Assembly: GCA_963758295.1 (NCBI GenBank)
Contig: CAVWUU010000001.1
Span: 160,001 to 224,000 of the forward strand
From: Candidatus Eremiobacteria bacterium
GTDB taxonomy: Bacteria; Vulcanimicrobiota; Vulcanimicrobiia; Vulcanimicrobiales; Vulcanimicrobiaceae
Reading direction: 5' to 3'
DNA length: 64,000 nucleotides
Shown: positions 1,474-18,401 of the stretch, piece by piece
How positions within the stretch are numbered: the first letter of the stretch is position 1
Layout of the letters: every line of letters starts with the position of its first letter
The notes under the pieces: model-generated
The model's database searches: none
What the model was told of the DNA's origin: nothing
Seen by the model: the letters and a program-made list of their open reading frames with translations, nothing else
Made by a program: the position numbers and the translations under genes

Positions 1474-2670
1474 CTAGCCCTTGAACTTCGGCAGCGCTTT
1501 CCCGATTTGTTCCAGTGCGTAATCGATGTCCGCCAGCGATGCCGCGTACGAGAAGCGCAGATACCCTTTACCGGCCGGGCCGAAGGACGAGCCGCCGCCG
1601 CACGCGACACCGGCCTCTTCCAGCAGGAAGCTCGCGAGGGCCTTATCGTCGTGCGTGATCTCCATCACGTTGGGGAACGCGTAGAACGCACCCTCCGGAA
1701 GCGTACATTTCATACCGGGGATGTTGTTCAAACCGGCAACGAGGCGGTCGCGGCGCTGGCGAAAGATTTCGTTCATCTCGCGCACGGGTTTATCGTCACC
1801 CGTGAGCGCGGCGATGCCTGCTTTCTGGACGAACGTGGCAACGCAGCTAAACGTGTTGTTGTTGAAGAGCGTCACGATCTTGTTCAGCTCTTCGGGCATG
1901 ATCGCGTAGCCGAGGCGCCAGCCCGTCATCGCATACGCCTTCGAGAAGCCGTCGACAATGATCGTGCGGTCTTGCATTCCGGGCAGCGACGCAATCGAAA
2001 CGAACTCGGTGTCCAGGTAGAAGTTGCGGCTGTAGATTTCGTCTGCGATTACGAGGAAGTCGTGCTTTTGCGCGAGTTCCGCGATGCGCTCGAGATCTGA
2101 GCGAAGGAGCACGCCGCCTGTGGGATTGTGCGGCGAGTTGATGACGACCGCTTTGGTACGATCCGATACGCGGCCGGCCAATTCGTCGAGATCCATGCGC
2201 CAGTTGCGCTCTTCACGCAACGGGATGCGGATCACGTTCGCCTGCAAGTAGCTCGAGGCCGAACCGTAGGCGGGATACGCGGGATCGAAGTAGATGAAGT
2301 CGTCGCCCGGATTGAGGAGCGCGCTCAAGATGTTCCAGATCACCGGCTTCGCGCCCGGCGCGACGGTGACGTTGGCAGCCGTGTACGGCTTACGCATCTT
2401 GCGGAACGACGTAGCGTAATCAGCGATTACCTCGCGCAGCTCGATGATGCCGGCCGATGGCGTGTAATGCGTGTCGTGGCCCATGAGCGAGTCGATTGCC
2501 GCTCTCTTGATATGCTCGGGCGTATCGAAATCGGGTTCGCCGATCTCCATATGCACGACGCGACGTCCCGTCGCCTCGATTTCGCGTGCACGCGCAAGGA
2601 CTTGAAATGCGTTCTCTGCACCTAATCGCGACACGGCGTCGGCGATGCGATTGTCGTGGACTGCGAGCAT
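1474..2670 (-). CDS. PLP-dependent aminotransferase class I/II (aspartate aminotransferase-like)
   Basis: IGEPDF, NSPHNPTG, DEIY and GFSKAYAMTGWRLG (PLP lysine) motifs. Confidence 0.93.
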   Translation of the reverse strand: MLAVHDNRIADAVSRLGAENAFQVLARAREIEATGRRVVHMEIGEPDFDTPEHIKRAAIDSLMGHDTHYTPSAGIIELREVIADYATSFRKMRKPYTAANVTVAPGAKPVIWNILSALLNPGDDFIYFDPAYPAYGSASSYLQANVIRIPLREERNWRMDLDELAGRVSDRTKAVVINSPHNPTGGVLLRSDLERIAELAQKHDFLVIADEIYSRNFYLDTEFVSIASLPGMQDRTIIVDGFSKAYAMTGWRLGYAIMPEELNKIVTLFNNNTFSCVATFVQKAGIAALTGDDKPVREMNEIFRQRRDRLVAGLNNIPGMKCTLPEGAFYAFPNVMEITHDDKALASFLLEEAGVACGGGSSFGPAGKGYLRFSYAASLADIDYALEQIGKALPKFKG

Positions 2671-2759: not shown

Positions 2760-5700
2760 ATGCGTACCCTGTCGGAAGTTTTCGCACCAGGATCACCGAC
2801 GCTGCCGGAGGGCCTCCGAACGCTCGTCGTTTCGCCCGACCGAGAGTTGGAACCTGGAATGACGGTGCGCGCATCATTCACGTTTCGCAATCAAGGCGGC
2901 GCTCCGGCATCCGGCGTGCGCGTGCGTTTCAACATACCCGATGGGCTCGTCTACCTCGTTGGGACGGGCCAGCTTGACGGCGCCGATCTCGACGACGAAC
3001 AGGGTAATTCGCCGTTGCTGGCTCGCGGCGGCGCGCAGATCGGCGACGTGGCGCCCGGCGAAGAACGTCGCATCGAAATCTCCTACAGCGTAGCGGGAGC
3101 AATCGAGAACGGCACAACGATCGAGCTGCAGGCGGCAGTCGCCTCGTTCGAACTTCCACCCGTCGGTTCGAATATCGTCCGCTTGATCGCCCGGAGCCGC
3201 CCGCAGTTGCAAAATGCCATCACTGGAATTGCGATTGAGGGCCGTCAGAACGCGGCGCCCGGCGCGGAAGCGCAGATCACTTTGCGTTTGCATAACGCCG
3301 GCGAATCGAGCGCCCACGACGTGGTCGTGGTGGCACCGATTCCCGAACACACGCGGTACGTTCTAAACTCGGCGCGTGTAAACGGCCGTGAGATCGAACG
3401 CGATCTCGGCGTCCCGTTCGACCGCGTATATGCACCGGTCGTCGCGCAAACGCTTGCGGCCAGCGCAAGCGCAACGTTGGTCTATCGGGTGCGGATCGAC
3501 AACCCGCTGCGAAACGGCACGCCGATCGTGGCACATGCGCAGATCGCTTCGCAAGAAACGCCCGCTTTCGCGCTCGAGGCCGCGTCGCTGAACGTCGAAT
3601 CAGCGCCCGACTTGAGCGACGAGCGCACGACCTTCACCATCGAGCCGTCGCACGACGTGCGTCCCGGAAGCCGCGTGTCGATGGTGTTTTCCGCGTATAA
3701 CGCCGGCTCGGCCGCCGCGGAAAACGTCACGGTGACCCTTGAGCTGCCCGATGCCCTAACGCCGGTGCGCGGTTCGGTGCAAGTCGATGGACGCCCGGTT
3801 CGCGAACGCAAAAAAGACCAGCTTTCCCTTGATTTGGGCCGTCTCGACGCAGACGAACGCGTTGAGCTGCGTTGCGAAGCGACGGTCGTTTCTCCGCTGG
3901 CCGATGCATCAGCATTGCCCGTATCGGCATTGCTTGTGTGGCAGCCGTCGGAAAATGACTCGCAGCGGCGCTTCGACCGCAGCATCGCTGTGCGCTCGGA
4001 ACCGGCGCTGCCCGTTCGCCGAAATACCATTTCACGCGCGCACGGCGAGATCGTGAAGCCGGGCGAAGAAGTGGAAGCGGCAATCGTCCTTTCGAACGAC
4101 GGCAGTGCCGCTGCTACGGACGTCGTCTTACACTTGCGTCCCGATCCCGGGCTCGAAGACGTGCGGCTTTTCGAGAAGAACGCTCGCATCACGCTCGATG
4201 CGGACGCCGCAGAAATCGGCTCGCTCGAGCCGTACTCGCAGCGGCGTTTCACGATGCGCGCCCGCGTGCGCGTTCCGTATGCCGATCGCAGCGAACTGCG
4301 GACCGGAGCGAGCGTGCACAGCCGCGAGCTGGGCGAGACGCCGCTGGGCGAAACGACATGGCGTGTGGATTCGCATCCGGCGTTTTCGACGCAGAGTTCG
4401 CACGTGCAGCTCGAAAGCGAAGAAGTGCTGCGACCGAATCAACTCGCCGACGTTGCCGTTCGCGTGGTGAATGCCGGCAGCGACGTCGCACACAACGTAC
4501 GCGTCCGTTTGTACGTATCCCCCGAAGCGCGCTTGGAAACGGTCGACGGTGCCACGCGAGAAAAATCGAAGCTCGTGTTCGGTGAGATCGCGCCCGGCGC
4601 GCGCGCCGAAGCGCGTCTGGGAGTGCGCCTTTTGCGCAGTCTTGCAAAAGAGTACCCGGTAACGATCGATGCCGTTCTAACGGCCGACGCGATGCTTCCG
4701 GTTCCGCTCGAACGTCTCACGATCGTGACGACTGCCGAGCCGGACTTCTCCGTTGGTACGTTGCGGAGCGAACCGGTCGAGGTCGCCGACGCCGGTGAAA
4801 CGATCGAGTGGACGTTGCACGTGCGCAACGGGGGCGACGGACCGGCGCGCCGCGTGCAGATCGCCGTTGCGCAGCCGGAATCGCTCATTTACGTGCCCAA
4901 CTCTACGACCGTTAACGACGTCCCCATTCGCGACACCGGCGCGTTGACGCCGCTCGCGAGCGACCGCGGAATCGTTTTGAACGACGTCGATCCCAGCGTT
5001 GAGGCGACCATTCGGTGGCGCGACGTGATTCACAACGGCCTTGGTGCCGGCGAAGCGATCTCCCGCACCGCGCGCGTCTCGTACGACGGCGATCGCGAAG
5101 ACGCACTCGTTTCAAATGAATTAAAAGTTCGCGCGACGCCCGTTTTCGCCAACGCGATTCCGGGTTTACCGTTCGGGCTCGACGGCATGATCGGCCCGTC
5201 GCTTGGCGGACAACGCGCATTGACCGAAGACCGGTTTTTGGAATTGCCGCCCGCGACGCCGGTGAACGGCGAAGGTGCAGTCCATCGCGAGTGGTTGCAG
5301 CAGCAAGATTTGCCGGTGCTCGAATCGGCGAGTAATGGCCGGCACGATACCGTTTCGCTTCACGACGAAGCGATTGTTGAAGGCGCGCTCGTCCACGAAG
5401 GAGCGGGCGTTGCGATTTCCTTCACGAGCGAGCGGCTCACGCGCACGTTGCGGTACTTGGAGGAAGCGCGCTTTAACGGGTTGATCACGCATCTCTTTGC
5501 GATCCGGGCATTCTTTCCGGAGACGCTCGGCGACACGCATGCGGGGTCGGTTACCGCGATCCGCGAAATGCTGCGCGACGAGTTCGACCGGCTCTTCATT
5601 AAACTGCGCTTGCCGAACTACGTCATCGCCGCTCGCGATATTGAAACGCCGTCGCTGCGAGCGACCGTGGAACGCTTCGTTCACGACGCTTCAACGGCGC

Positions 5701-6017
5701 GCGGGATCCCTGCGGATGTTCCGGGCGCCGCGGTGATCTTGCGCGGCACACTCGATGCCGGCGGGTTTGGCGAAATAGCCGATACGCTTTCCGAGGCGGA
5801 GCTAGCGTCGGCGCTGCCGTGGACGCTGCTCGCCCGTGCCTTGCCCGATGCGACGCCGCAGCTGGCGCATTATCGGAAGATGCTCGTCGATCGATTGGAC
5901 GGCCTCGTGGATGCGGAGTCCGCTGAGTTCGTGGATTCGCTGCAGCGCCGGCGCGATACCGCGCTCGACGCGGCGTTGGACGTCCTTCGCACGTCGCTCT
6001 ATGCAAACGCCAGGTAA
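2760..6017 (+). CDS. Large protein with six DUF11-like Ig repeats and a helical C-terminal domain (paralog A)
   Basis: Six ~110-135-aa units with the pattern [PA]G..V....V.N.G...A..V.V....P, then a linker and a ~200-aa helical domain. No signal peptide. Confidence 0.85.
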   Translation: MRTLSEVFAPGSPTLPEGLRTLVVSPDRELEPGMTVRASFTFRNQGGAPASGVRVRFNIPDGLVYLVGTGQLDGADLDDEQGNSPLLARGGAQIGDVAPGEERRIEISYSVAGAIENGTTIELQAAVASFELPPVGSNIVRLIARSRPQLQNAITGIAIEGRQNAAPGAEAQITLRLHNAGESSAHDVVVVAPIPEHTRYVLNSARVNGREIERDLGVPFDRVYAPVVAQTLAASASATLVYRVRIDNPLRNGTPIVAHAQIASQETPAFALEAASLNVESAPDLSDERTTFTIEPSHDVRPGSRVSMVFSAYNAGSAAAENVTVTLELPDALTPVRGSVQVDGRPVRERKKDQLSLDLGRLDADERVELRCEATVVSPLADASALPVSALLVWQPSENDSQRRFDRSIAVRSEPALPVRRNTISRAHGEIVKPGEEVEAAIVLSNDGSAAATDVVLHLRPDPGLEDVRLFEKNARITLDADAAEIGSLEPYSQRRFTMRARVRVPYADRSELRTGASVHSRELGETPLGETTWRVDSHPAFSTQSSHVQLESEEVLRPNQLADVAVRVVNAGSDVAHNVRVRLYVSPEARLETVDGATREKSKLVFGEIAPGARAEARLGVRLLRSLAKEYPVTIDAVLTADAMLPVPLERLTIVTTAEPDFSVGTLRSEPVEVADAGETIEWTLHVRNGGDGPARRVQIAVAQPESLIYVPNSTTVNDVPIRDTGALTPLASDRGIVLNDVDPSVEATIRWRDVIHNGLGAGEAISRTARVSYDGDREDALVSNELKVRATPVFANAIPGLPFGLDGMIGPSLGGQRALTEDRFLELPPATPVNGEGAVHREWLQQQDLPVLESASNGRHDTVSLHDEAIVEGALVHEGAGVAISFTSERLTRTLRYLEEARFNGLITHLFAIRAFFPETLGDTHAGSVTAIREMLRDEFDRLFIKLRLPNYVIAARDIETPSLRATVERFVHDASTARGIPADVPGAAVILRGTLDAGGFGEIADTLSEAELASALPWTLLARALPDATPQLAHYRKMLVDRLDGLVDAESAEFVDSLQRRRDTALDAALDVLRTSLYANAR

Positions 6018-6023
6018 CGCCTC

Positions 6024-6431
6024 TTGAACACAATCGTTATCATCCTGGTCGTGATCTTGCTCGCCGGTATCGCGGTAGGCGCGTATGCGTTCTTAGCGCC
6101 GCGCCGTGCCGAGCGCGACGACGAAGGCGCCAAAGGGACGCGCGAGCCCGCGCAGGCGGCGACCGGCTGGAGCGGTGAGACGGAAAACGAATTTGCGGGC
6201 CTATCGGAAGCCGCGCGTTGCGATCTCGTGTTCGCCGTTGCGACCTTGGAAGACGAACGTTCGCAGCAACTGCTCGTGCACGCGCTCGACGATCCCGCCG
6301 AAGCCGTCGCCCTTGCCGCGGCCCACGCGCTCGTTTCAAGCGGCCGCAGCAGCATCGTTGAATCGTTTCTCGCGCGTTCGCCCGGGCCTCGCGCCGAGCG
6401 CATCAGCGATACACTCGCGCTTCTTGACTGA
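6024..6431 (+). CDS. N-terminally membrane-anchored HEAT/PBS-like repeat protein (partner A)
   Basis: One TM helix then RRAER. HEAT-like segment LLVHALDDPAEAVALAAAHAL. Starts 6 bp after paralog A. Confidence 0.75.
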   Translation: MNTIVIILVVILLAGIAVGAYAFLAPRRAERDDEGAKGTREPAQAATGWSGETENEFAGLSEAARCDLVFAVATLEDERSQQLLVHALDDPAEAVALAAAHALVSSGRSSIVESFLARSPGPRAERISDTLALLD

Positions 6432-6484
6432 TTACAAACAGCGGGTCCCTAGGTTGCGCCTGGTCGGAGAGGGAAAGTAGCGGC

Positions 6485-9400
6485 GTGGCTTCCTCGCTGA
6501 CCGGCATTTTTGCCCCGGGCTCTCCCGCTTTGCCGGAGACCCTTCGGACATTGATTCTGGAACCGGCGCGCAGCGTTGCGCCCGGTGATAACATTCGAGT
6601 CAGCTTTTCGTTTTCGAATCTCGGCGGTGCGCCGGCGACGGGCGTGCGCGTGCGCTTCGCGCAACCGCAAGGCGTCGTCCACGTTGGCGATGCCGACGTC
6701 GTGGACGACACTGCGCTCGCTGAGGGTTCCTTTGCGGATGCGAGCGGTGCGGCCATCGGCGATTTGGAACCCAACGCGCAGCGCCGCCTCACGTGTACGT
6801 TCCGCGTCAACGATACGATCGAAGACGCCACGGAGCTGCAGTTTCAAGCCGCGCTCGCAACCGATCAGACGCCGCTTGTCGGCTCGAACGTGGCCCACGT
6901 CGTCGTTCGCAGCCGCCCCGAACTCCAGGGCAGCGGAACGCTCGCAACGATTTCGTCGCCGTCGGTCCCGAAGCCGGGCGATGCCATCACGGTTCGCGCG
7001 ACTATTGTCAACTCGGGCTCGTCGAGCGCGCACGACGTAACTCTCGTCTTGCCGGCGCCGGAAAACACCAGTTACGTATCGCGCAGCGCGCGCATCGACG
7101 GGCGCGTCGTCAAGAGCTCCAGCGGCGAGCCGTTCGATTACGATAGCGCGACAATCATCAGCGAACGCTTGATGCCGGGCCAAGCCGTGCTCGTCGAGTA
7201 TCAAGCGACGATCGATTCACCGCTGGCCGACGGCACGCGGATCAAAGCATCGGGAACCGTCGGCTCGCGTGAACTTTCGGAATTCGCTATTTCATCGGCG
7301 GAGGTCGTCGTCACTTCGCCCGTCGACTTCGAAGGCGAAGAGAGCGGTTTGACGATTCTGTCGGACGACGTCGTAACGCCGGGGATGCGCGTCCCGATGG
7401 TCCTGCGCGCGATGAACACCGGGACCGGCATTGCGCAACGGCTGCAGTTTTCGTTCGATCTTCCCCAAGGATTGATTTACGCTCCAGGATCCGCGCACGT
7501 CGACGGCCAGCCCGTGAGCGACGACTCTATCCCGGGCCTGGTTTTCTCACTCGGCTCGCTCGCGGCGGGACGTATGGTCGAAGCCGGTATCGCGGCGACG
7601 GTCGCGGTTCCCGCAAGCGGCGGCGCGACAGCGCTCCCCGTGCAGGGCACGCTGCGTTGGCGAAACGGTGAGCGGCGTTTCACGCGGCGCCTTTCCGTGC
7701 GTGTTGCACCGCGGTTCAGCCGCGCCCGCAATTTCGTCGAAGCGGATCGCGGCGTCGCGCAAGCGCGCGACGAAGTGAAGTTCACGGTTCACGTTTATAA
7801 CGACGGTACCGCGCCCGAACAAGACGTGCGTTTGCGTTTGATTCCGGGTTTGCACCTCGGCGATTTGCGCATCGGGGAAGACTCCGAGGAATCCCAGGCG
7901 TACGATCAACCGCTCGCGCTCGGCCTTGTGGAACCGCACAACCAGCGAACGTTCACCGTTTACGCGCGCGTCGGCTCCCGTGTGCCGGATCGTTCGAACG
8001 TTGCGCTCGGCGTCATTCTGGAACACGCCGAAGGCGCCGTCGATCTGGGAACGGCTACGGTCGTCGTGCGCTCGCGGCCGGCCATCGAAAGCGTCGTCTG
8101 GGAACTCGCGTCGCACGAACCGCTCCGGCCCAATCGCACTATCGACGTGATCGTTCGCGTCGCGAACGGAGGCACGGACGTTCTGCGCGACGCGCGCCTT
8201 TCGCTGACCCTTCCTCCGGAACTTGCAGTGGAACGCGCCGTCGACGCGCAGCGAGATCGTGAAGGCGTAGCGTTCCAAGACGTTCCCGCCGAATCAACGC
8301 ATGAAGCGCGCATGACGTTACGGCTGCTTCGCGCCGTTGCGAGCACTCGCGTGCTTACGGTCGATGCGTGGCTGCACGGCAAAGGCATCAGCCCCGTTCA
8401 GCTCTCACCGCTCGAAGTGCCGGCATACGCGGAACCGCAATTCGCACAAAGCTCGCAAGTCTTGGCGATTCCAGCCGAACACGTGAACGCCGGTGAGCGG
8501 CTGTTCTATGAAATTCGCTTGCGCAACGACGGCGACGGCCCGGCAGAGCGTTTGGTGATACGCGTCGTGCCGACGAATTTAGCGGTATACGTGCCGGCAT
8601 CGACCACGCTCAACGGCATGCCGGTGAACGACGATTCGGGCGTTTCACAGTTGTGGTCGCAACGCGGACTCGTCCTAGCCGATGTCAATCCGAATGTCGA
8701 ACTGCGCATCCGCTGGGAAACGATCGTAATGTCGCCGCTCGCGGCCGATACGCCGATCGATACGCGAGCCGTCTTCGAGTGGGATCAAGGCAAGACCCTC
8801 GCGCTGACCGCACCCACGGTTCGCGTTCAAGCGCAGCCTTCGCTCAGCGAATCGGCCGAAGGAACGCCCATTTCGATTGCGCGCGTCTTTTCCGCCGAGG
8901 GGCCCGTGTACGAAGCGGCGCCGCTGCCGCCCGAACCCGAACCGGTTCCCGAACCGCCGCAGCCGCCGGTGGAAGCCGCTCCGCCGCGCATGATTGCCGA
9001 GGTTATAGCGGCTGAAACGGTCGAGTTTCCCTCGGTGCTTCCGATGATCGGTGCTCCCGAACCGCCGCAAGCGGCGCAGGCCGTGCCCGTTCTCTACGCC
9101 GATTTCTCGCCGGACCGTCTCGACAACACGATTCGCATGATCGAACGCAGCAATGTCGGCGGACTTGTGCAGCATCTTTTTGCAATGCGCATGCTGCTGT
9201 TCCCCGAACATGCGATCAATGCGTCGCCGCAGCTCAGCGGGTCGTTTGCGAACGCTAACCGGCTCTTACGCGCGCCGCTGGAAAAATTGTTCGTCCGTCT
9301 AGGTACGCCGCGCTTGCAAGTCAGCGGCAAGGACATCGAAGATCGTGAAAGCCGCGACGGGCTGCGCAACCTGATCGACGATCTGTCACTTGCGCCGACG

Positions 9401-9748
9401 GCTTCGCCGCAGCCGCCCCCGCCGGGCGTCATTCGAATCGAAGGCGCGGTCGAACTTGACGTCGTGCAGTCGCTCGCGCTCTCGCTCGAATCGTTACCGC
9501 TCGGTGCCGTGGCGCCTTGGCTCATCAACGCGCAATTGCTCGGCACTTCAATTGTCTACGATCGAACGAAATCCGAAACGCTCGAAGCGTATCGGAGCGA
9601 GCTTTTGAACGTCTTTACGGTGCTGGCGGAATTACCGATCATGGAGTTTCACCGCGTGCTCACGACGAGCGTAAATCGCACGCTCGATGAGTCGCTCGCC
9701 GCGGTGCTCGAAGCACTGCGCGGCGCCGCGCACATTGCTGTCGAGTAA
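6485..9748 (+). CDS. Large protein with six DUF11-like Ig repeats, Pro-rich linker and helical C-terminal domain (paralog B)
   Basis: Colinear with 2760..6017: FAPGSPALPETLRTL vs FAPGSPTLPEGLRTL, and GGLVQHLFAMR vs NGLITHLFAIR. No signal peptide. Confidence 0.85.
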   Translation: MASSLTGIFAPGSPALPETLRTLILEPARSVAPGDNIRVSFSFSNLGGAPATGVRVRFAQPQGVVHVGDADVVDDTALAEGSFADASGAAIGDLEPNAQRRLTCTFRVNDTIEDATELQFQAALATDQTPLVGSNVAHVVVRSRPELQGSGTLATISSPSVPKPGDAITVRATIVNSGSSSAHDVTLVLPAPENTSYVSRSARIDGRVVKSSSGEPFDYDSATIISERLMPGQAVLVEYQATIDSPLADGTRIKASGTVGSRELSEFAISSAEVVVTSPVDFEGEESGLTILSDDVVTPGMRVPMVLRAMNTGTGIAQRLQFSFDLPQGLIYAPGSAHVDGQPVSDDSIPGLVFSLGSLAAGRMVEAGIAATVAVPASGGATALPVQGTLRWRNGERRFTRRLSVRVAPRFSRARNFVEADRGVAQARDEVKFTVHVYNDGTAPEQDVRLRLIPGLHLGDLRIGEDSEESQAYDQPLALGLVEPHNQRTFTVYARVGSRVPDRSNVALGVILEHAEGAVDLGTATVVVRSRPAIESVVWELASHEPLRPNRTIDVIVRVANGGTDVLRDARLSLTLPPELAVERAVDAQRDREGVAFQDVPAESTHEARMTLRLLRAVASTRVLTVDAWLHGKGISPVQLSPLEVPAYAEPQFAQSSQVLAIPAEHVNAGERLFYEIRLRNDGDGPAERLVIRVVPTNLAVYVPASTTLNGMPVNDDSGVSQLWSQRGLVLADVNPNVELRIRWETIVMSPLAADTPIDTRAVFEWDQGKTLALTAPTVRVQAQPSLSESAEGTPISIARVFSAEGPVYEAAPLPPEPEPVPEPPQPPVEAAPPRMIAEVIAAETVEFPSVLPMIGAPEPPQAAQAVPVLYADFSPDRLDNTIRMIERSNVGGLVQHLFAMRMLLFPEHAINASPQLSGSFANANRLLRAPLEKLFVRLGTPRLQVSGKDIEDRESRDGLRNLIDDLSLAPTASPQPPPPGVIRIEGAVELDVVQSLALSLESLPLGAVAPWLINAQLLGTSIVYDRTKSETLEAYRSELLNVFTVLAELPIMEFHRVLTTSVNRTLDESLAAVLEALRGAAHIAVE

Positions 9749-10061
9749 TCCCGCACTCGGAATTTTCGCCGCACTTTTTCTGCTCGGCGCGTTATTCTTT
9801 GCCGCCGGCACCTGGCTTGCTCGCCGCGAAAGAGTCGCGCCCGTTTCCTTGCCGGTGGCGCCGATCACCTGGACGCAGGCCGTTGCCAATAGCGACGAAA
9901 CTTTCGCGCCTCAATTGCGTCTGGATATGATCGAACGCCTCGCCATGGTCGGGCAAGAGTGGTGTGTCGAGGTGCTGCAGCGCGCGCGTATCGAAGAAAC
10001 CGATCCCGCGATCGCCGACGCGATCGAACGCGCTCTCATCGTGATCGGCGCGCGCCGTTAG
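9735..10061 (+). CDS. N-terminally membrane-anchored HEAT-like protein (partner B)
   Basis: TTG at 9735 overlaps the paralog B stop. TM helix then RRER. RLDMIERLA...EVLQRA...DPAIADAIERAL parallels partner A. Confidence 0.7.
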   Translation: MLSSNPALGIFAALFLLGALFFAAGTWLARRERVAPVSLPVAPITWTQAVANSDETFAPQLRLDMIERLAMVGQEWCVEVLQRARIEETDPAIADAIERALIVIGARR

Positions 10062-11932
10062 TACGTGAAGTCCGGACTCTTCTTGAAGTATTTAACGAGA
10101 ATGTCACGCGCGATCGGCGCCGCAACGCTCGCGCCGTAGCCGCCGCTTCGATCCACGAACACCGCCATCGCGAGCTTCGGATGATCGGACGGCGCCCAAG
10201 CGACGAACCACGTCGTGTTTGCGCCCGATCCGTTCTCGCCGGTTTCAGCCGTTCCGGTCTTTCCGGAGAACGCCAACCCTTTGATCTTCAACCCATACGC
10301 CGTGCCGCCCGGATCGGTGACCTTGGCCATGCCTTCGCGCACGTATTTCAGCGCGTCTTCGGTAACCGGAACCTGGCGAATGATTTCGGGCGAGAACGAC
10401 TTGATCAGCTCGCCGCTTGGCGAGCGAATTTCGCGAACTACTTGCGGCTTATAGAGCGTGCCGCCATTGATGACGGCCGATGCAATGTTGGTGATTTGCA
10501 ATGGAGTTGCTTGCATTGCGCCTTGGCCGATTCCGAGCATGCACACTTCGCTCGGCTCCATGGGCACGTGGAACACTTTCATTTCCCATTCCGGCGTCGG
10601 CCAATTGCCGCTGATTTCACCGGGAAGATCGATGCCGGACTTCTTGCCCAAACCGTAGAGCAAGGCGTATTTTTGCAGGCGCTCGCGTCCAAGGCGCCAC
10701 GCCATTTGATAGAAGTACCCATCAGAAGAAGCGGCAAGCGCCGGGACGAACGTCGTGCGGCCCAATCCGCCCGAGGCGATGTCTCGCGCAATGTAGCCGC
10801 CGCAATTCCACGCGCCGCTGTCATAGACGACTTCGTCCGGCTTCACGACGCCTGCGCTGAGGGCGCCGGAGCCCGTCACCATCTTGAACGTAGAGCCGGT
10901 CGGCGTCGCGGCGCCGATCGCATTGTTGTATAGCGGATCGACGGGATCGAGAAGATACTTCGCGACCATCTTGTAGTTGTCGTCGGCGAAATCGTTCGGA
11001 TCGAACTCCGGGTAACTCGACATGGCGAGAATACCACCGGTCCACGGATCCTCTACGACCACCGCGCCCGAGAGTTTCCGTCCGTGCGCCCATTTTTGGA
11101 TGCCGTCTGCCAGCGCTTGATCGACGATCTGCTGCAAACGCAAATCGATATTGGTGACGACCTTGTCACCGGGAACCGCGGCTTTTGACGGCAGCTTGAT
11201 GCCGGGGACGACGGAGCCGGTGGCATCAACGACAACGCGTTGGCCGCCGGGCTCGCCACGCAAATATTTATCGTAAACGTACTCGAGCCCGTCTTTCCCG
11301 ATAACGTCGTTCGGCGAATACCCCTCGTGCTTTAGACGGTTGTATTCGTCCTCGGTGATCTGTCCGACGTAGCCGAAGACGTGCGCGCCCATGCCCTTGA
11401 ACGGATAATCGCGAATCGGTTGCACTTCGAGATCGACCCCGGGCAGGTCGGGCAACACTTCCGAAAGCCGCGCGACCGTTGCAACGGGCAGCCCTTCGTC
11501 AAGCACGACGGGTCCATAGGGCTCGTAGACCTGGACTTGATCGAAGTCGTCGTAGTTCACGCCGCGGTGGTGGAGCAGTTTCTTCCAAAGCGCTGCTTCC
11601 TTAACGTTCAACGTCTTTGCGAGCGTGCGCATTTCGCCGTTGACGTCGGTCACTTCGGATGGAATAAGGCCGACAACGAACGAGGGACGGCTGCGCACCA
11701 TCACTTTGCCGTATCGATCGAAAATAATGCCGCGCGGCGCCGCGACGCGGATCAAACGAACCTGGTTGGCTTGCGCTTGCGTCCGGTACATCTCGCCCTG
11801 GGCGATTTGCACTTGCACGAGCCGCACCACGATGGCGATGACGACCAGCGCGATGAATGTTGCGAAGCCGGCAACGCGCCATGGAGACTTCTGCCACGAT
11901 ATCCGAGGAAAGCGGCGGCGTTCGGTAATCAT
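10058..11932 (-). CDS. mrdA: Penicillin-binding protein 2
   Basis: TM anchor, APRGIIFDRYG, GKDGLE, STFK (SxxK), SSD (SxN-like) and KTG motifs. Lies downstream of mreCD. Confidence 0.93.
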   Translation of the reverse strand: MITERRRFPRISWQKSPWRVAGFATFIALVVIAIVVRLVQVQIAQGEMYRTQAQANQVRLIRVAAPRGIIFDRYGKVMVRSRPSFVVGLIPSEVTDVNGEMRTLAKTLNVKEAALWKKLLHHRGVNYDDFDQVQVYEPYGPVVLDEGLPVATVARLSEVLPDLPGVDLEVQPIRDYPFKGMGAHVFGYVGQITEDEYNRLKHEGYSPNDVIGKDGLEYVYDKYLRGEPGGQRVVVDATGSVVPGIKLPSKAAVPGDKVVTNIDLRLQQIVDQALADGIQKWAHGRKLSGAVVVEDPWTGGILAMSSYPEFDPNDFADDNYKMVAKYLLDPVDPLYNNAIGAATPTGSTFKMVTGSGALSAGVVKPDEVVYDSGAWNCGGYIARDIASGGLGRTTFVPALAASSDGYFYQMAWRLGRERLQKYALLYGLGKKSGIDLPGEISGNWPTPEWEMKVFHVPMEPSEVCMLGIGQGAMQATPLQITNIASAVINGGTLYKPQVVREIRSPSGELIKSFSPEIIRQVPVTEDALKYVREGMAKVTDPGGTAYGLKIKGLAFSGKTGTAETGENGSGANTTWFVAWAPSDHPKLAMAVFVDRSGGYGASVAAPIARDILVKYFKKSPDFTY

Positions 11933-11935
11933 GAC

Positions 11936-12238
11936 CTAACGATGCTCGAACCGGCGAATGACCAGCACCAACGCGAGGGCGAACACGGATATGGCCGCGC
12001 CCTCCATCAGCATTTCATAGGCACGCGCGCGACGGTGCAGCACCGGTGCAGAATCGCCGGCGGTCCGAATTTGATTTTCGCGCGCCGCCGTCTGGTACGT
12101 GTTGCCCTGTGCGAGCTGCACTTGCGCCAGCCGGAAGACTATCGCAAGAATCACGGCCGCAATCAACGTCGCAAACGCAACGATGCGCACGCGAGATTTG
12201 TGCCATGAGACGCGCGGAAAACGGCGCCGTTCGATCAT
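11936..12238 (-). CDS. Chimeric two-TM mini-protein: PBP2 N-terminus fused to MreD C-terminus
   Basis: Residues 1-58 match the MrdA N-terminus. The end EMLMEGAAISVFALALVLVIRRFEHR matches the MreD end EALIEAALNAAIMIVVMLFVRRLEHR. Confidence 0.7.
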   Translation of the reverse strand: MIERRRFPRVSWHKSRVRIVAFATLIAAVILAIVFRLAQVQLAQGNTYQTAARENQIRTAGDSAPVLHRRARAYEMLMEGAAISVFALALVLVIRRFEHR

Positions 12239-12239
12239 G

Positions 12240-12764
12240 TTATCGATGCTCGAGCCGGCGGACGAAAAGCATTACGACAATCATGATAGCTGCGTTTAGC
12301 GCCGCTTCGATGAGCGCTTCATGAAAATGGAGTCTTGCAAGGCCGCTCGGATACCCTTCCAGCGCCATGACGATCCAGAACAACAGCGATCGCAGCAGCG
12401 AAGCAATCGCCGTAATCAACGAAACGAGGGGAATGGAATCGGCAAAGAAGCCGCGCGAGAGTGTACCGGCGATAATCGCGACGAGCGTCGTGGAAATCGT
12501 CCATGCGCCCCCCGTTAACGTCGCGAGAATATCTTCGCATATGCCTGCGGCAAGTCCGTAAATTGCGGCGCGCCGTGTATTCACCCGAATCGCGTACCAC
12601 ACGACGGCAACTAGCACCAAGCTCGGTTCGGCGCCGCGAACGTTGGCGTAGTGCATCACCGTTACTTGCGCAAGCAGCGCAACGGCAAGCCAGCCGGCGG
12701 CGGTTATCCACGACGGTCCGGAAAACGGAGCTTCGTGAGCGACCTTACTTCGGGACGACGACAA
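12240..12764 (-). CDS. mreD: Rod shape-determining protein MreD
   Basis: Multi-TM 174 aa, PSLVLVAVVWYA and GLAAGICEDI, positioned between mreC and mrdA. Confidence 0.88.
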   Translation of the reverse strand: MSSSRSKVAHEAPFSGPSWITAAGWLAVALLAQVTVMHYANVRGAEPSLVLVAVVWYAIRVNTRRAAIYGLAAGICEDILATLTGGAWTISTTLVAIIAGTLSRGFFADSIPLVSLITAIASLLRSLLFWIVMALEGYPSGLARLHFHEALIEAALNAAIMIVVMLFVRRLEHR

Positions 12765-13506
12765 CGCGATCGAGAGTGCCGAGATTGACGGCGGGTTTCA
12801 ACACGGCGGTTTGATAGAGCGTCGCGTCGCCGCGTTCGATTCGCACCACGCGTCCGATCGGCACGCCTGCATGGAACGAATGACCTTCGCCGGTAACCAC
12901 GACGTCGTTTAGCTTGACCGGCGCGTCTTGCGGTAAAAATTCGACGCGCACGCTTGTGAGGTTGCCGCGCGCGATGCCCCAATACCGGCCGCGTTGCGTT
13001 ACCGCGGGAAGCCGGCTCGTGTAGTCGGTGATCAAGACGATCTTGCTCGAGAACGGCGCGACCGATTCGACACGTCCGACAATGCCTCCGGCGCCGACCA
13101 CGCCGTCGTCCTTATGGACGCCGGCATTGCTTCCGCGATCGATCGTCACCGAACGCGTCGCATTCTCCGGCGGGAAGCCGATGACGCGCGCTTCGATGGC
13201 ATGCGGATAGAGATTGACGATAGGTTGAACGGAAACTTCGGCAGCGTACTCGGCCGCGAGTTCGTGCAAGCGTTGGTTCTCGAGTTTCAATGCGGTGTTC
13301 TCCGACCGCAAGGAACCATTGTCGCGTTCGAGCTGCGGCAACTGGACGATGGCCGCTGCTCCCCCGCGCACGCCGCCGGCAATTGCGGAAGTGGCCATTT
13401 CGACAAACGAAACGAGGGAAGTACCGACGGTTTCGAGCGGGCTGATTTGTCCCGAACGCTCAGCATTAATCTGCACGAGCGCGAGCAGCGCCGCTACGAT
13501 GATCAC
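12745..13506 (-). CDS. mreC: Rod shape-determining protein MreC (true start may be upstream at 13551)
   Basis: TM helix, coiled coil (LRSENTALKLENQRL), TIDRGSNAGV, VVTGEG...PIGRV. Confidence 0.9.
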   Translation of the reverse strand: MIIVAALLALVQINAERSGQISPLETVGTSLVSFVEMATSAIAGGVRGGAAAIVQLPQLERDNGSLRSENTALKLENQRLHELAAEYAAEVSVQPIVNLYPHAIEARVIGFPPENATRSVTIDRGSNAGVHKDDGVVGAGGIVGRVESVAPFSSKIVLITDYTSRLPAVTQRGRYWGIARGNLTSVRVEFLPQDAPVKLNDVVVTGEGHSFHAGVPIGRVVRIERGDATLYQTAVLKPAVNLGTLDRVVVVPK

Positions 13507-13572
13507 CGTTATGAGCGCGAAGAGTCTGCGCTCGTCTCGATACGTAAAGATGTTGGCCCTCGGAATAAATCC

Positions 13573-14181
13573 TTAGCTTATGGCTTGCTGTTTCGTTACG
13601 GGGAGCGTGAATCCCAACCTGCGAAGCGCCCGAACGAACCGTGCGAGCGGGAACCCCATGACCGTGTAAAAATCGCCGTCGATGGCTTCGACCAGCGACG
13701 CCGCGCGGCCCTGAATCCCGTACGCACCTGCTTTATCCATCGGCTCGCCGGTGGCAACATATTCGTCAATTTCACTTGCCGTCAAGGAATAGAATCTCAC
13801 TCGCGTGGTGACCGACTCTTCGATCGCCCGCTCGGCTCCCGCGGGCAGAAGCGCGAACGCCGTATGCACAAGATGCTCGCGACCGGACAAGCATTGAAGC
13901 ATGCGCACGGCTTCTGCATGGTCCTTCGGTTTGCCGAGCGCAACCCCATCGACGTCGACGACGGTATCGGCCGCAACGATGAGTTCCTGGTTGCCCACTT
14001 GCGCCGCTACGTCCCGCACTTTCTCCAGCGCGTGCCGCGTCGCTAAGTCCAGGGGCGTTGCCGCCGGATCTTCCGGTTCGTCGTAGCGGCTCGGTTGCAC
14101 CGCTACTTCAAGTCCCAGCGATTGCAGTAGTTCAAGTCTTCTCGGGGATGCGCTTGCCAGAACCAGGCGCTCCAAAATCAT
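13573..14181 (-). CDS. maf: Maf family nucleoside triphosphate pyrophosphatase
   Basis: LVLASASPRRLELL, AADTVV, GKP, DKAGAYGIQG. Confidence 0.93.
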   Translation of the reverse strand: MILERLVLASASPRRLELLQSLGLEVAVQPSRYDEPEDPAATPLDLATRHALEKVRDVAAQVGNQELIVAADTVVDVDGVALGKPKDHAEAVRMLQCLSGREHLVHTAFALLPAGAERAIEESVTTRVRFYSLTASEIDEYVATGEPMDKAGAYGIQGRAASLVEAIDGDFYTVMGFPLARFVRALRRLGFTLPVTKQQAIS

Positions 14182-14470: not shown

Positions 14471-15712
14471 CTAGCCGTTTATGACGACGGTGTATCCGCC
14501 GACTGTCTGGCCGCCTTGGCTCGCAGAAACGCGATATACCTGAGCCTGTCCGGCCGCCGGCGGAGCATCCGTCGTCGTAAACGCAACTTGTTGATCGTCG
14601 CCATTGACGTTTTGGGCCTGCGCTCCCGGTGCAGCTTTTTGTGCACCGCCGACTGGAGACGGCGGCGAAAGCAATGGCGCACCGGTAGGTGCCGCCGGCG
14701 CAGGAAACCCGCCTCGCGTTCCCGTTTGCAGCTGCAACCACGGCATCGCGGAGGGCTGCGTGCGTTCCACTTGCACCGTGGCCGGCGCGCCGAAAAGCGG
14801 TCCGACCTTTAACAGCAAGAGCGGTGCGGTTGCGGCTTCGGCTGCCGTCATGACGTGAATGTTGCGCTGAGCGATGTGCCGGTTGAGCGAGGCATCCCAC
14901 TCCGGAGTCGACAACGCATCGGAACACACGTCCCACGCGCGAACGATGAGGCATTCATGGCCGCCGTTCTCATACTTTGCTTCCCACGCTTCGGGACACT
15001 TCACGACCTTGTGTGAATTGGAACTGTAACGCGAGCCGAGAGCCGTGGTCGCCTGTCCGATCAAATGTGCGCCTCCGCCGTTGATTCCCAGCGACGGATC
15101 GATCCAGTAGAATTCGACGATGACGGCGTTGGCCGCCGATTTGCCGAAGTTCCAAATGTGTGCGTACACGGTATTCGGAGCATTCGCCAGCGCCGTTTGC
15201 CCGAGTTCCTTCGGCACGTCGGGTGCATCTTGGGGCAACACCCCGGCGAGCAGATAAATGTCCGGACTTTCCCAAAATGGCCCGCTGACCGGTCTCGTGC
15301 CGGTATCACCCGGATTCGCACGCATAAAAAGAAACGGCAGATACAGGTCTTTGCGCGGGCCGGGCCATGTTCCAATCGGATGCTTCCCTTGAACGTCACC
15401 AGGCGTTATGGGTGTGCCGCCGAGATCTCCGCGACTTGTACCAACCGTTTTTCCCGGCCGTCCAGACGGCGCGCCGGAGCCGCCACCACCAGCGCCCGGG
15501 GTGCCGCCACTACCGCCGCCGTGCTCGTGCTCCGTACATTCTTCGCAATCGTCGCGTTCGTGGCGCTCGTTGTGCGGTGGCCGGTAACGCACCGTGACTT
15601 CAAGCTCGGCGCCTTCGATGTGGACGACGTGATGTTCATCATGTTCGTGATGTTCGTGAGCTGCGGCATGGTTGTGGTGTTCGTGCTTTTTACGATCGCG
15701 ATCATCGGACAC
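14471..15712 (-). CDS. Hypothetical protein: His-rich/CxxC N-terminus, Gly linker, beta-rich C-terminal domain
   Basis: GTG start overlaps the upstream stop. HEHHNHAAAHEHHEHDEHH, CEEC, PFWESPDIY, VYAHIWNFG, GHECLIVR. Confidence 0.75.
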   Translation of the reverse strand: MSDDRDRKKHEHHNHAAAHEHHEHDEHHVVHIEGAELEVTVRYRPPHNERHERDDCEECTEHEHGGGSGGTPGAGGGGSGAPSGRPGKTVGTSRGDLGGTPITPGDVQGKHPIGTWPGPRKDLYLPFLFMRANPGDTGTRPVSGPFWESPDIYLLAGVLPQDAPDVPKELGQTALANAPNTVYAHIWNFGKSAANAVIVEFYWIDPSLGINGGGAHLIGQATTALGSRYSSNSHKVVKCPEAWEAKYENGGHECLIVRAWDVCSDALSTPEWDASLNRHIAQRNIHVMTAAEAATAPLLLLKVGPLFGAPATVQVERTQPSAMPWLQLQTGTRGGFPAPAAPTGAPLLSPPSPVGGAQKAAPGAQAQNVNGDDQQVAFTTTDAPPAAGQAQVYRVSASQGGQTVGGYTVVING

Positions 15713-18401
15713 GGCGCTTCCCCTTTGTGGAAACCTTGGCAACGGGCCGGCTAGGCACGGAGAGGGTTCGTTGCGCTACTCGCGGCTGCGGAGCGGCCGG
15801 AATGCGTGGCTTATCAACGTAGAGCAGACGCATCGGGGCATTTGGGCTTGAAAGCCAGCCAACGGCGGTTTGCGGCCATACTTGCGGCGGCCGAAACGCA
15901 AATCCCAAATCTTCTTCGGTCGTCGCTTGTATCGTGCGCGCCCAATCCCACGTCAAATATCCGAACGCACGATCCGAATCGAGATTGAACTGCGTCGCGT
16001 AAGCGCGGTCGTTCAGCACTCTTCCGATCAAATATGCCGTGAACGGGATCGGGTCGCCAAGCGGGCTGTCCGCGGTCTGCGGATTGATATTCGCCATATT
16101 GAGGCGATCGGTTTCCATAGGCGACGACGAGAGCTCGTACGCGCTTCGCGTGCGCGGATTCGCCGTCGGGTTCGTTCTGAAAAAGACGGCATCCGGAGTC
16201 GAGCCTTTCGGGAACGGACCGGGAACGACTGGCGGGCTGATGCGTGGGGCCCAGGTATCCTCGTCATCGACATTTACTTGATAGACCTGCTGTTCGGTAC
16301 GGTTTATCCCGTAGACGGGGGGCTTGGGCTCTGAACCGTCGGCAGCGAGCAGCGGTGTAATTTCGGGGTACGACCACGGACGTTTATAATCGCGCGTGTC
16401 GACACTATACGGCGGCATTTTCCCGGGTTGCGGTGTTTTGTTGGCGCTGTCGTAGAGCACCGCTTGATAGTACGGATAGGATGCGCCGCCGATGTCATGA
16501 GTTGGCGGCGGCACCGTGCGATCGAGATTTCCAAACGGATCGACGGCGTCGCCGAGAGCCTGCAAAAATGCATCGTCGACCGTTTTTCCGAGCGTCACGA
16601 GGGACTCGTCGATTTCGTTCGGCAGCATCAGCTCGCCGTCTGAATACTGCAGTTCGCCGTGCGGAACCACGAAACCAAGATGTGCGAGAATCTCGTGTGT
16701 TTTCGAGACGATGTCCCACACGAGCATCGATAATTCGTAGAGGGCCAGCCGGATTGGATAGCTGCCCGGACTGGCAAGCATCTTTATAAGATCACCGGCC
16801 AGCTTCAACGCAGCGTCGGCTTCTTTGTTGATCCAGTCATAAAGCGATTTCAGTGCATCGCATACGTCTTCAACGGGATCGGCGCTCGACGGTCCGCTGA
16901 AATCCGGCGGTGAGAGCAGATTTGTGACGTCGGAGCTCGGCGGAAAGATGACGACGTCCGGTGCGCGCGGCTTGGCCAGACTCCACGACGACACGTAGCT
17001 AAGACTGTAGAACGTGAGCATGAAGCGATAAAACGTTTGCACTTGCCACGGCAGCGGAAAGCCTTCGGGCACACCGATTGTGCTCGGCGGGGCAATGTCG
17101 TTGAGCAGTGTCGCAAAGGGCTGATCGAGGGCGTGTCCCGTTACCAGCTGAACGATCTGGGTCAAAAGACCGGCGTCGATCGTCTGCTGAAACGAATCAC
17201 CTTGATACACGCGGGGATGCGTGTAGGGCCGCCGTCCCGATTCGTCTTCCTTCGGCGTTTCATCGCCATAGGTGGCCTTCAGTGCTTCGACGATCGCTTC
17301 GGCCATCCACATCGGCATGTCGCCGTCGACGGTCTTCAGCATTGTCGAGGCGGCCGCCGGATCATCGGGGAGCGTGTCCGGGCGCTGATCGCCGTGCGGA
17401 TTATCGGAGGTCATCTGCACGCAGTACGCGATCACACCGTTGACGAGATCGGGATACGTGTCGGTAGCGCCCCAGGGGTCCTGCGGAATCGTTCCGCCGG
17501 CCGCGCTGTGACGATAATTCCATGCGTCGATGTGATTTTCGATCAAGTGATGGCGCTGCGGGTGATTGCGGAACGGTCCGCCGCACTGCTCGTTCACAAA
17601 TGAATGGCCGACCGTATCGAGTCCAACATGGGTCATCCATCCCAGGGCGAACGCCAGCATCTGCTCGAAATTATCGTTGCTCGTTGCCCGCAACGCTTCG
17701 GCCTGTGCGATCAGGTTCGTAACGATCGTCGTCGTGCGCCGGTAATGAAGTACGTCACCCCACAGAAACGACTGCTCATCCCAACCTTTGGATACGCACG
17801 TGTCGAATGCAGCGAAGATATCCGTGAACGTAAGCAATTCCAATTCACCGATGTTCACGATCGCATTTTTTAGTTGCGTGATGCCGTCGGCAAACGCGCT
17901 CACCACACCGCCCGTCAAATCATCGAGCGCGGAGTCCGCGGCGTCCACAAAGGGGCCAATGGTGCTAGCCCACACGCCGAGAAAGTCTTTCCAGATCTTT
18001 TCCAGCTCTAGCAAGAATCGCACAAGCGCGCCAAGCGTCGAGTTCACTTCATCTAAGATCAGCAGCATCGGCTCCCAATCTTGCTCTTCATTTGTTTTGT
18101 AGAAGTAGTACACCGCAAGTGCGAGCATGATGTTGTCGCTCGGCGGCACAACAGTGCCAAGCACTTTCGATGCGTAGTCCTGGGAAAAATAAAAGAGATC
18201 GGGCCCGATCGCTCCGATAGCAGTAAATTTTTCCCAGCGCTGCATGATCGTGCCGCAATATTGCGGCCCGTATGTGCCGATAGTGCCGGCGAATGCCGGA
18301 TTACCCTGTGCTGCAGGTCCGGTCCAATCAGGAACGTTACCGGCAGCGAGAAAATCCGCAACTCGTCGCGCCGTATAGATATGCGTAAAATGTGCAGGCA
18401 T
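15702..18401 (-). CDS. Large zinc-dependent phospholipase C / P1-nuclease-fold protein
   Basis: N-terminal MPAHFTH, GAIGPDLFYF, DVLHY, LGWMTHVGLDTVGHSFVN and HHLIENHID give the Zn-ligand pattern. About 600 aa of unknown C-terminus. Confidence 0.75.
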   Translation of the reverse strand: MPAHFTHIYTARRVADFLAAGNVPDWTGPAAQGNPAFAGTIGTYGPQYCGTIMQRWEKFTAIGAIGPDLFYFSQDYASKVLGTVVPPSDNIMLALAVYYFYKTNEEQDWEPMLLILDEVNSTLGALVRFLLELEKIWKDFLGVWASTIGPFVDAADSALDDLTGGVVSAFADGITQLKNAIVNIGELELLTFTDIFAAFDTCVSKGWDEQSFLWGDVLHYRRTTTIVTNLIAQAEALRATSNDNFEQMLAFALGWMTHVGLDTVGHSFVNEQCGGPFRNHPQRHHLIENHIDAWNYRHSAAGGTIPQDPWGATDTYPDLVNGVIAYCVQMTSDNPHGDQRPDTLPDDPAAASTMLKTVDGDMPMWMAEAIVEALKATYGDETPKEDESGRRPYTHPRVYQGDSFQQTIDAGLLTQIVQLVTGHALDQPFATLLNDIAPPSTIGVPEGFPLPWQVQTFYRFMLTFYSLSYVSSWSLAKPRAPDVVIFPPSSDVTNLLSPPDFSGPSSADPVEDVCDALKSLYDWINKEADAALKLAGDLIKMLASPGSYPIRLALYELSMLVWDIVSKTHEILAHLGFVVPHGELQYSDGELMLPNEIDESLVTLGKTVDDAFLQALGDAVDPFGNLDRTVPPPTHDIGGASYPYYQAVLYDSANKTPQPGKMPPYSVDTRDYKRPWSYPEITPLLAADGSEPKPPVYGINRTEQQVYQVNVDDEDTWAPRISPPVVPGPFPKGSTPDAVFFRTNPTANPRTRSAYELSSSPMETDRLNMANINPQTADSPLGDPIPFTAYLIGRVLNDRAYATQFNLDSDRAFGYLTWDWARTIQATTEEDLGFAFRPPQVWPQTAVGWLSSPNAPMRLLYVDKPRIPAAPQPRVAQRTLSVPSRPVAKVSTKGKRRVR

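Follow-up and report, generated by a model that had tools for sequence, protein, structure and literature searches.

What does a bacterium do with giant proteins that are built from adhesin-type immunoglobulin-like (Ig) domains and carry no detectable export signal? This question is raised by a four-gene locus, here termed A-a-B-b, in a 64,000-nucleotide stretch of DNA from a Candidatus Eremiobacteria bacterium (assembly GCA_963758295.1, contig CAVWUU010000001.1, positions 160,001 to 224,000), which was analyzed as a whole and is called the window; coordinates are counted from its first nucleotide. The giants A and B both end in a C-terminal domain (CTD), and each is followed by the gene of a small partner, a or b, with a transmembrane (TM) segment and HEAT-like helices. 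Our best explanation, to which we assign a probability of roughly 45%, is that such a pair forms a cytoplasmic adaptor, tethered to the membrane, by which the type IV pilus machinery is positioned or regulated. The unit may well help to position or control the pilus motor, because relatives without the Ig rod sit in type IV pilus operons. The conserved core of the family is the CTD together with the TM-HEAT protein, not the Ig rod.

Gene A (2760..6017, + strand; 1085 aa) encodes an N-terminal motif, six DUF11/CnaA-type Ig domains, a linker and the CTD. It is followed on the same strand by gene a (6024..6431, TTG start; 135 aa), with an N-terminal TM segment, basic residues, a linker, a Trp motif and HEAT-like helices; by gene B (6485..9748, GTG start; 1087 aa), a colinear paralog of A; and by gene b (9735..10061, TTG start; about 108 aa), with a TM segment, a linker, a Trp motif and one HEAT-like pair. 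The layout and the paralogy claimed in the original prediction are confirmed by four plus-strand open reading frames (ORFs) and by 37% identity between A and B over 809 columns (E 3e-151); their CTDs are 27% identical over 206 columns (E 1e-19). Gene b also stands as a gene, but probably not from the ATG at 9687; the likelier start is the TTG at 9735, where homologs begin and which overlaps the stop codon of B. No sigma-70 promoter-like site was found in 2600-2800. A-a and B-b are two old copies of one two-gene unit: orthologs of A and B are found in tandem in several genera, and other genera carry A-a only, at the same site.

Ig-less homologs within type IV pilus operons

A profile search of five genomes negative for the CTD of A recovered a distant CTD in one of them (G063), inside a type IV pilus operon. 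Used as a query, the G063 domain was found in 17 of 401 genomes of the phylum, in 16 Ig-less proteins from 13 genera and in one six-Ig giant (G268); the CTD of A was positive in none of these 17 genomes. Profile-profile comparison supports homology of the Ig-less (D-type) CTD with a probability of 97.3% (E 2e-11, 203 columns) and of its partner with 95.2% (E 3e-8), and the gene order is the same. In a quick tree, which was drawn at the midpoint and is unrooted so that the direction of Ig loss is not readable from it, the D-type CTD groups with a six-Ig giant (support 99), and the B-type and A-type CTDs form separate clades (support 97 and 82). The D-type proteins (L061:1420-2490 and homologs) begin with two repeats of about 45 residues (aa 1-95) that by eye resemble the first two strands of the first Ig domain of A and have no Pfam match.

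D-type loci were read in 15 genomes, 13 of them with upstream DNA and 12 with a sufficient length downstream. In 13 of 13 loci a secretin gene lies directly upstream of the CTD gene, and in 12 of 12 the genes of the HEAT partner and of a second PilT-family ATPase come after the CTD gene. The whole order pilB-pilT-pilC-pilin-pilD-pilM-N-O-P-Q-CTD-HEAT-pilT2 is seen in six loci, and starts and stops overlap at the locus of G063; pilB, pilT, pilM and pilQ were named from best NCBIfam matches below cut-off and the other pil genes from order and sequence. Giants adjoin secretin genes as well: a degenerate Ig giant and a TM gene overlapping the pilQ stop are present in G162, and in G151 a giant comes after a second secretin, GGDEF and HD genes on one strand. 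Thirteen other pilQ loci, including that of the window's genome, have no such genes adjoining.

In four (L059, L074, L075 and L076) of the nine loci compared for these motifs (L059, L073-L079 and L082), the Walker A or Asp box of the second PilT-family ATPase (best match TIGR01420) is altered, and this ATPase is possibly a regulatory or inactive motor. The D-type operon thus recalls PilT/PilU systems in pairing a canonical PilT with a second PilT-family ATPase, PilU being a second retraction ATPase that depends on PilT (PMC6821130, accessible part). It differs in that the CTD and HEAT genes precede the second ATPase, which is the distal gene of the operon, and the accessible part of the same paper describes no comparable accessory pair. 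No longer fusions of the D-type partner were present among 8000 candidates, which is weak evidence. The PilB-like ATPase (L073:2979-4139; G000:C4:378942-380258) matches PilB/GspE models only from position 110-180 and seems to lack the N-terminal domain, like ComGA.

The distribution of the unit was compared with that of pilQ in the bacterial family of the window. The unit occurs in 164 of 175 pilQ-positive and in 63 of 121 pilQ-negative genomes (table 164/11/63/58), and the table becomes 164/11/28/13 when genus g4 is left out. In g4, pilQ is found in 0 of 80 genomes, the unit in 35 and the control gene aspAT in 75. Such a pattern agrees with an accessory discarded once pili are lost, and it rests largely on this one genus. 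Strict dependence of the unit on pili was rejected, and its co-occurrence with pilQ is asymmetric. Flagellin gives no contrast, because it was above cut-off in 0 of 40 genomes. A cultured relative, Vulcanimicrobium alpinum, is described in the available text of PMC9758169 as a diderm that makes type IV pili and is phototactic.

Several observations weigh against a pilus role. For A and B of the window, that role is an extrapolation from homologs: in the window's genome the pilus operon is on contig C4 and A-a-B-b is on C1, away from pilus genes, and no second PilT was found there. Thirty-five g4 genomes retain A-a without a detected pilQ ortholog, all 32 g4 genomes searched for PilM, of which 20 carry the unit, were negative, and 11 pilQ-positive genomes show no unit; the genomes counted in the pilQ table are related and incomplete and are not independent, so that a P value from it is no test. 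Two of the 11 that are 97-99% complete (G018 and G045) were negative with the profile too. The D-type operon may be a single event inherited by 13 genera, the CTD match in G162 is weak (E 0.009), and the DNA after pilQ is variable in other genomes.

An alternative is a general cytoplasmic scaffold of the inner membrane, either a hub at the pole or division site or a coat of intracytoplasmic membranes, which one clade later recruited into its pilus operon, with A and B unrelated to pili. This equals the model of the original prediction minus its mre connection, and we consider it unlikely. Its localization evidence is that of the pilus adaptor; it would account for the unit in the 63 pilQ-negative genomes and for a site beside aspAT that is old and common to two families; and the available part of PMC9758169 reports vesicular intracytoplasmic membranes in the cultured relative. 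The top Foldseek rows for the full model of A are, moreover, intracellular tandem-Ig proteins of the ciliary central apparatus (7som, 9ijj and 7sqc). These share intracellular Ig strings with A, as predicted for it, but match at a TM-score of only 0.1-0.16 with 10-12% identity, a low score that reflects repeated Ig folds rather than demonstrated homology. Loss of the unit, however, is frequent in genomes without pilQ and rare in those with it, and there are three separate placements beside secretin genes. The number of Ig domains also runs from 0 to 6 across 103 listed homologs of at least 300 aa, many of them fragments, which suits a spacer better than a lattice; for the lattice or coat of A and B envisaged in the original prediction no evidence was obtained.

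The C-terminal domain and its membrane partner

The CTD of A (aa 880-1085; 5397..6014), which defines the family, was modeled as a 205-aa domain of two strands and about ten helices, with a predicted local distance difference test score (pLDDT) of 93.8 and a predicted template modeling score (pTM) of 0.90. Foldseek gave no match at E 0.001, the ESM Atlas gave no usable match for either CTD type, and the CTD profile matched no PDB sequence and no recurring Pfam family. Structural comparison with 48,161 chains yielded a best Z of 5.4, with TssK (3.9) and IglD (4.3) within background. The missing fold match does not prove a new fold. Conserved residues (HLxxxR..P, E/D..R and YR) suggest a binding surface, and no catalytic residue set and no nucleotide-binding motif were recognized in the domain. 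No CTD copy beyond A and B was found in the window's genome.

Partners a and b have one N-terminal TM segment each (hydropathy 2.94 and 2.33), preceded across the partner family by only 0-17 residues. The match of a to HEAT_2 (PF13646) reaches 20.6 bits (E 5.5e-4), below the curated cut-off of 27.7; b alone has no Pfam match, and two of five long family members (L023 and L028) exceed the HEAT cut-off. One spurious antisense ORF entered the a-type hidden Markov model, and its matches on antisense frames of mrdA were disregarded. The co-conservation of large and small genes that had been anticipated is borne out by a TM-bearing ORF after 37 of 42 CTD matches; of the other five, two are frameshifted long-read loci, one is at a contig end, one has a TM-less amphipathic partner and one is a fusion. 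One partner (L080:1545-2897) has an amphipathic start, then a linker of about 250 residues, rich in Ala, Glu and Arg and predicted to form a coiled coil, and finally the HEAT part.

In genus g16, an in-frame fusion joins partner a to a B-type CTD (TM-HEAT-CTD) in six of the six genomes examined, from nine in the sample; in G101, mrdA follows directly after the fusion, so that b is gone. Such a fusion would be expected if the small protein served to hold the CTD at the membrane. The fusion thereby suggests that the giants are tethered by their TM-HEAT partners, as originally proposed, the binding itself being predicted. An apparent CTD-TM-HEAT fusion with its domains on opposite sides (P0124) was rejected as an indel artefact, since it is a singleton with visibly frameshifted segments.

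In the mechanism that we propose, the TM-HEAT protein, with a predicted N-out/C-in topology, would anchor the CTD to the cytoplasmic face of the inner membrane, its HEAT domain binding the CTD of the large partner. The Ig string may be an optional spacer, a six-Ig rod of about 25 nm if extended (at an estimated 4 nm or so per domain), that presents the conserved N-terminal motif to another partner at a distance from the membrane. As the client we propose the pilus motor or the site of its assembly, by analogy with FimV/HubP landmarks. With these the partners share one TM segment, a variable low-complexity cytoplasmic linker and C-terminal helical repeats, in a topology predicted from charge bias, and such landmarks have a tie to type IV pili in P. 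aeruginosa, as given in the accessible portion of PMC12918733; the likeness as a whole is by analogy only. The partners differ from FimV/HubP in having no periplasmic LysM or Ig part, in being HEAT-like instead of FimV/TPR, and in having a dedicated large partner; no FimV, LysM or TPR Pfam match was found in a, b or five longer homologs. It is conceivable, if rather doubtful, that these proteins are a new class of cytoplasmic pilus organizer in which a PilT-family motor is kept at the membrane by a HEAT anchor together with the CTD, whose fold is unmatched, the Ig rod acting in most lineages as an intracellular ruler or tether, possibly head-to-tail through the N-terminal motif.

Docking of c-di-GMP or cAMP enzymes would make the pair a membrane hub for second-messenger signaling, any effect on pili being indirect, which we find improbable. 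A shorter paralog class adjoins a GGDEF gene in seven loci (L025, L027, L029, L031, L100, L101 and L103), accompanied by a CRP-like gene in L025 and an HD gene in L029, and HubP/FimV recruit such enzymes (PMC9061725 and PMC12918733, as far as their accessible parts go). Most of these GGDEF-type neighbors, however, are divergently transcribed, none occurs beside A/B or the Ig-less type, and the CTD offers neither a nucleotide-binding motif nor a fold match.

Architecture and cellular location of the Ig giants

From a 56-row alignment, AlphaFold predicts for A (mean pLDDT 82, pTM 0.36) six beta-sandwich domains (aa ~21-793), a disordered stretch (795-879) and the alpha/beta CTD (880-1085); because of the low pTM the relative placement of the domains is undefined. 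No segment is more conserved than the first 19 residues (2760..2816), a candidate binding motif with low pLDDT when modeled alone; column identity there averages 0.81 over 19 diverse rows, which fixes the start codon of A. The tandem Ig sandwiches with a CnaA-like fold (aa 20-793; 2817..5138) match Pfam DUF11 (PF01345; cut-off 24.6) with 113 bits in A (E 1e-32) and 90 bits in B (E 2e-25), and those of A align to the CnaA-type pilin domains of BcpA and EbpB (Z 11.6, root-mean-square deviation 2.7-3.0 over 121-124 residues). The linker (aa 795-879; 5142..5396) has low pLDDT and is poorly conserved over aa 836-879 (0.25).

The pair is probably cytoplasmic and membrane-tethered, whatever its client. 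Export signals and TM segments were assessed in A, B, a and b by hydropathy and pattern tests, and the absence of export signals in the giants, as first noted, was upheld. The highest 19-residue hydropathy is 1.55 in A and 1.39 in B, and neither these nor 120 close homologs have a hydrophobic N-terminus. In-frame stops lie 19-20 codons above both starts, with no hydrophobic stretch between. A signal-like flag was raised in four of 103 representatives of at least 300 aa, namely one fusion, two Ig-less short records and P0207, which on reading has no signal peptide. The cytoplasmic C-terminus claimed for a and b likewise holds as a prediction: the partners average 0.2 Lys/Arg residues before the TM segment and 2.5 after it, with more after it in 34 of 37. 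Three partners (L035, L064 and L080) have no TM segment and an amphipathic N-terminus only, which fits with the cytoplasmic face. Cysteine shows neither conservation nor pairing (of 103 homologs with Cys, 60 have even and 43 odd counts), and the Lys of the Lys-Asp-Asn isopeptide triad of CLIPPER domains is missing from all six repeats, where no column has a first-strand Lys in more than 5 of 56 rows; the available text of the CLIPPER preprint notes that this Lys is absent from some DUF11 domains too (10.1101/2025.04.25.650565).

A composition classifier, for which 88 signal-bearing and 564 cytoplasmic proteins from the window's genome served as the training set under our own gene calls and heuristic labels (cross-validated area under the curve 0.88), scored the Arg/Glu-rich giants at 0.20 (A) and 0.26 (B); 3.4% of the signal-bearing set falls below A. 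Against a cytoplasmic location stand one 310-aa record (P0204) that reads as a signal peptide plus CTD, and the periplasmic MreC, which was also classed as cytoplasmic (0.31), making the classifier weak.

The Ig repeats of A and B exceed the Pfam cut-off and resemble the stalks of DUF11/CLIPPER proteins (PF01345, TIGR01451). They differ from these adhesins in having no detected signal peptide and no adhesion or sorting domain, no isopeptide Lys and an Arg/Glu-rich composition, in ending in an unrelated CTD that is always paired with a TM-HEAT gene, and in that the repeats are absent in one subfamily. That A and B are exported without a signal peptide as fibrillar adhesins or surface rods, a and b being export chaperones or anchors, is the least probable alternative: DUF11 usually builds adhesin stalks (10.1101/2025.04.25.650565, in the part available), Gram-positive pilins are the closest single-domain folds, secretin genes adjoin some homologs and P0204 would agree, but the scarce first-strand Lys, the composition, the scattered Cys counts, the g16 fusion of the CTD behind a C-in anchor and the dispensable Ig part all speak against it.

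Genomic setting and reach of the family

The protein family, carried by a family of soil bacteria, is limited to one order of Vulcanimicrobiota (Eremiobacterota), and its named relatives are metagenome-assembled genomes of this phylum. The CTD of A is found in 216 of the 401 phylum genomes, including 210 of 296 from the bacterial family of the window and five of five from its sister family in the same order, and in 0 of 99 from 19 other families; these tallies, like those of pilQ, the unit and aspAT in the bacterial family and in g4, include up to ten genomes marked unpublished (G213, G233, G238, G246, G248, G264, G328, G344, G359 and G370), on which nothing else in this account depends. A 33-row CTD profile retrieved 275 clusters at 50% identity. 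In genus g28 (L032:7108-8595 and L104:6759-8420), a shortened, fast-evolving giant and a reduced partner occupy the aspAT-mrdA site and are possibly decaying.

In the window, A-a-B-b is located between aspAT (1474..2670, - strand), a class I/II aminotransferase gene that is divergent from A and is the most constant neighbor, and mreC-mreD-mrdA (10058..13506, - strand), which converges on b and was named from the original prediction and sequence inspection. The morphogenetic tie to mreCD-mrdA that had been raised there did not hold up. The unit is on the opposite strand. Three 97%-complete genomes of g4 have lost it cleanly, with 76-140 bp between their matches to mrdA and aspAT. Giants of the sister family are still beside aspAT, not mrdA, and paralogs occupy unrelated sites. 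Co-transcription or a functional link was therefore rejected in favor of a positional association.

Other features of the window were noted in passing. A 100-aa ORF at 11936-12238 (- strand) starts like the N-terminus of mrdA and ends like the end of mreD, an apparent partial local duplication. Deeper genera (L023, L032, L098, L104 and L105) have an mreB-like gene between mreC and maf that is not in the window (12745-13573); the best mreB-like match in the window's genome is at C1:231517. Two insertion-like ORFs of 423 and 899 aa lie between maf and nadD (14471-18401, - strand) and were not found in 11 related loci, and the window begins with a candidate two-domain cupredoxin lipoprotein with a lipobox-like start (3-959, - strand).

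No known family has this CTD together with a TM-HEAT partner and, as an option, a signal-less Ig rod, and a literature search found no paper on the family or on its DUF11 proteins in Eremiobacterota. The reach of the system is limited to one order, in part of which the unit is dispensable. Through its setting in pilus operons, what was an orphan pair becomes open to test, with the second PilT-family ATPase as its named client and piliation, retraction and phototaxis as its named phenotype. If our reading is correct, these bacteria would use adhesin-type Ig repeats inside the cell, and the pair would add a new accessory module to type IV pili, in a phylum that has a cultured member with both pili and phototaxis.

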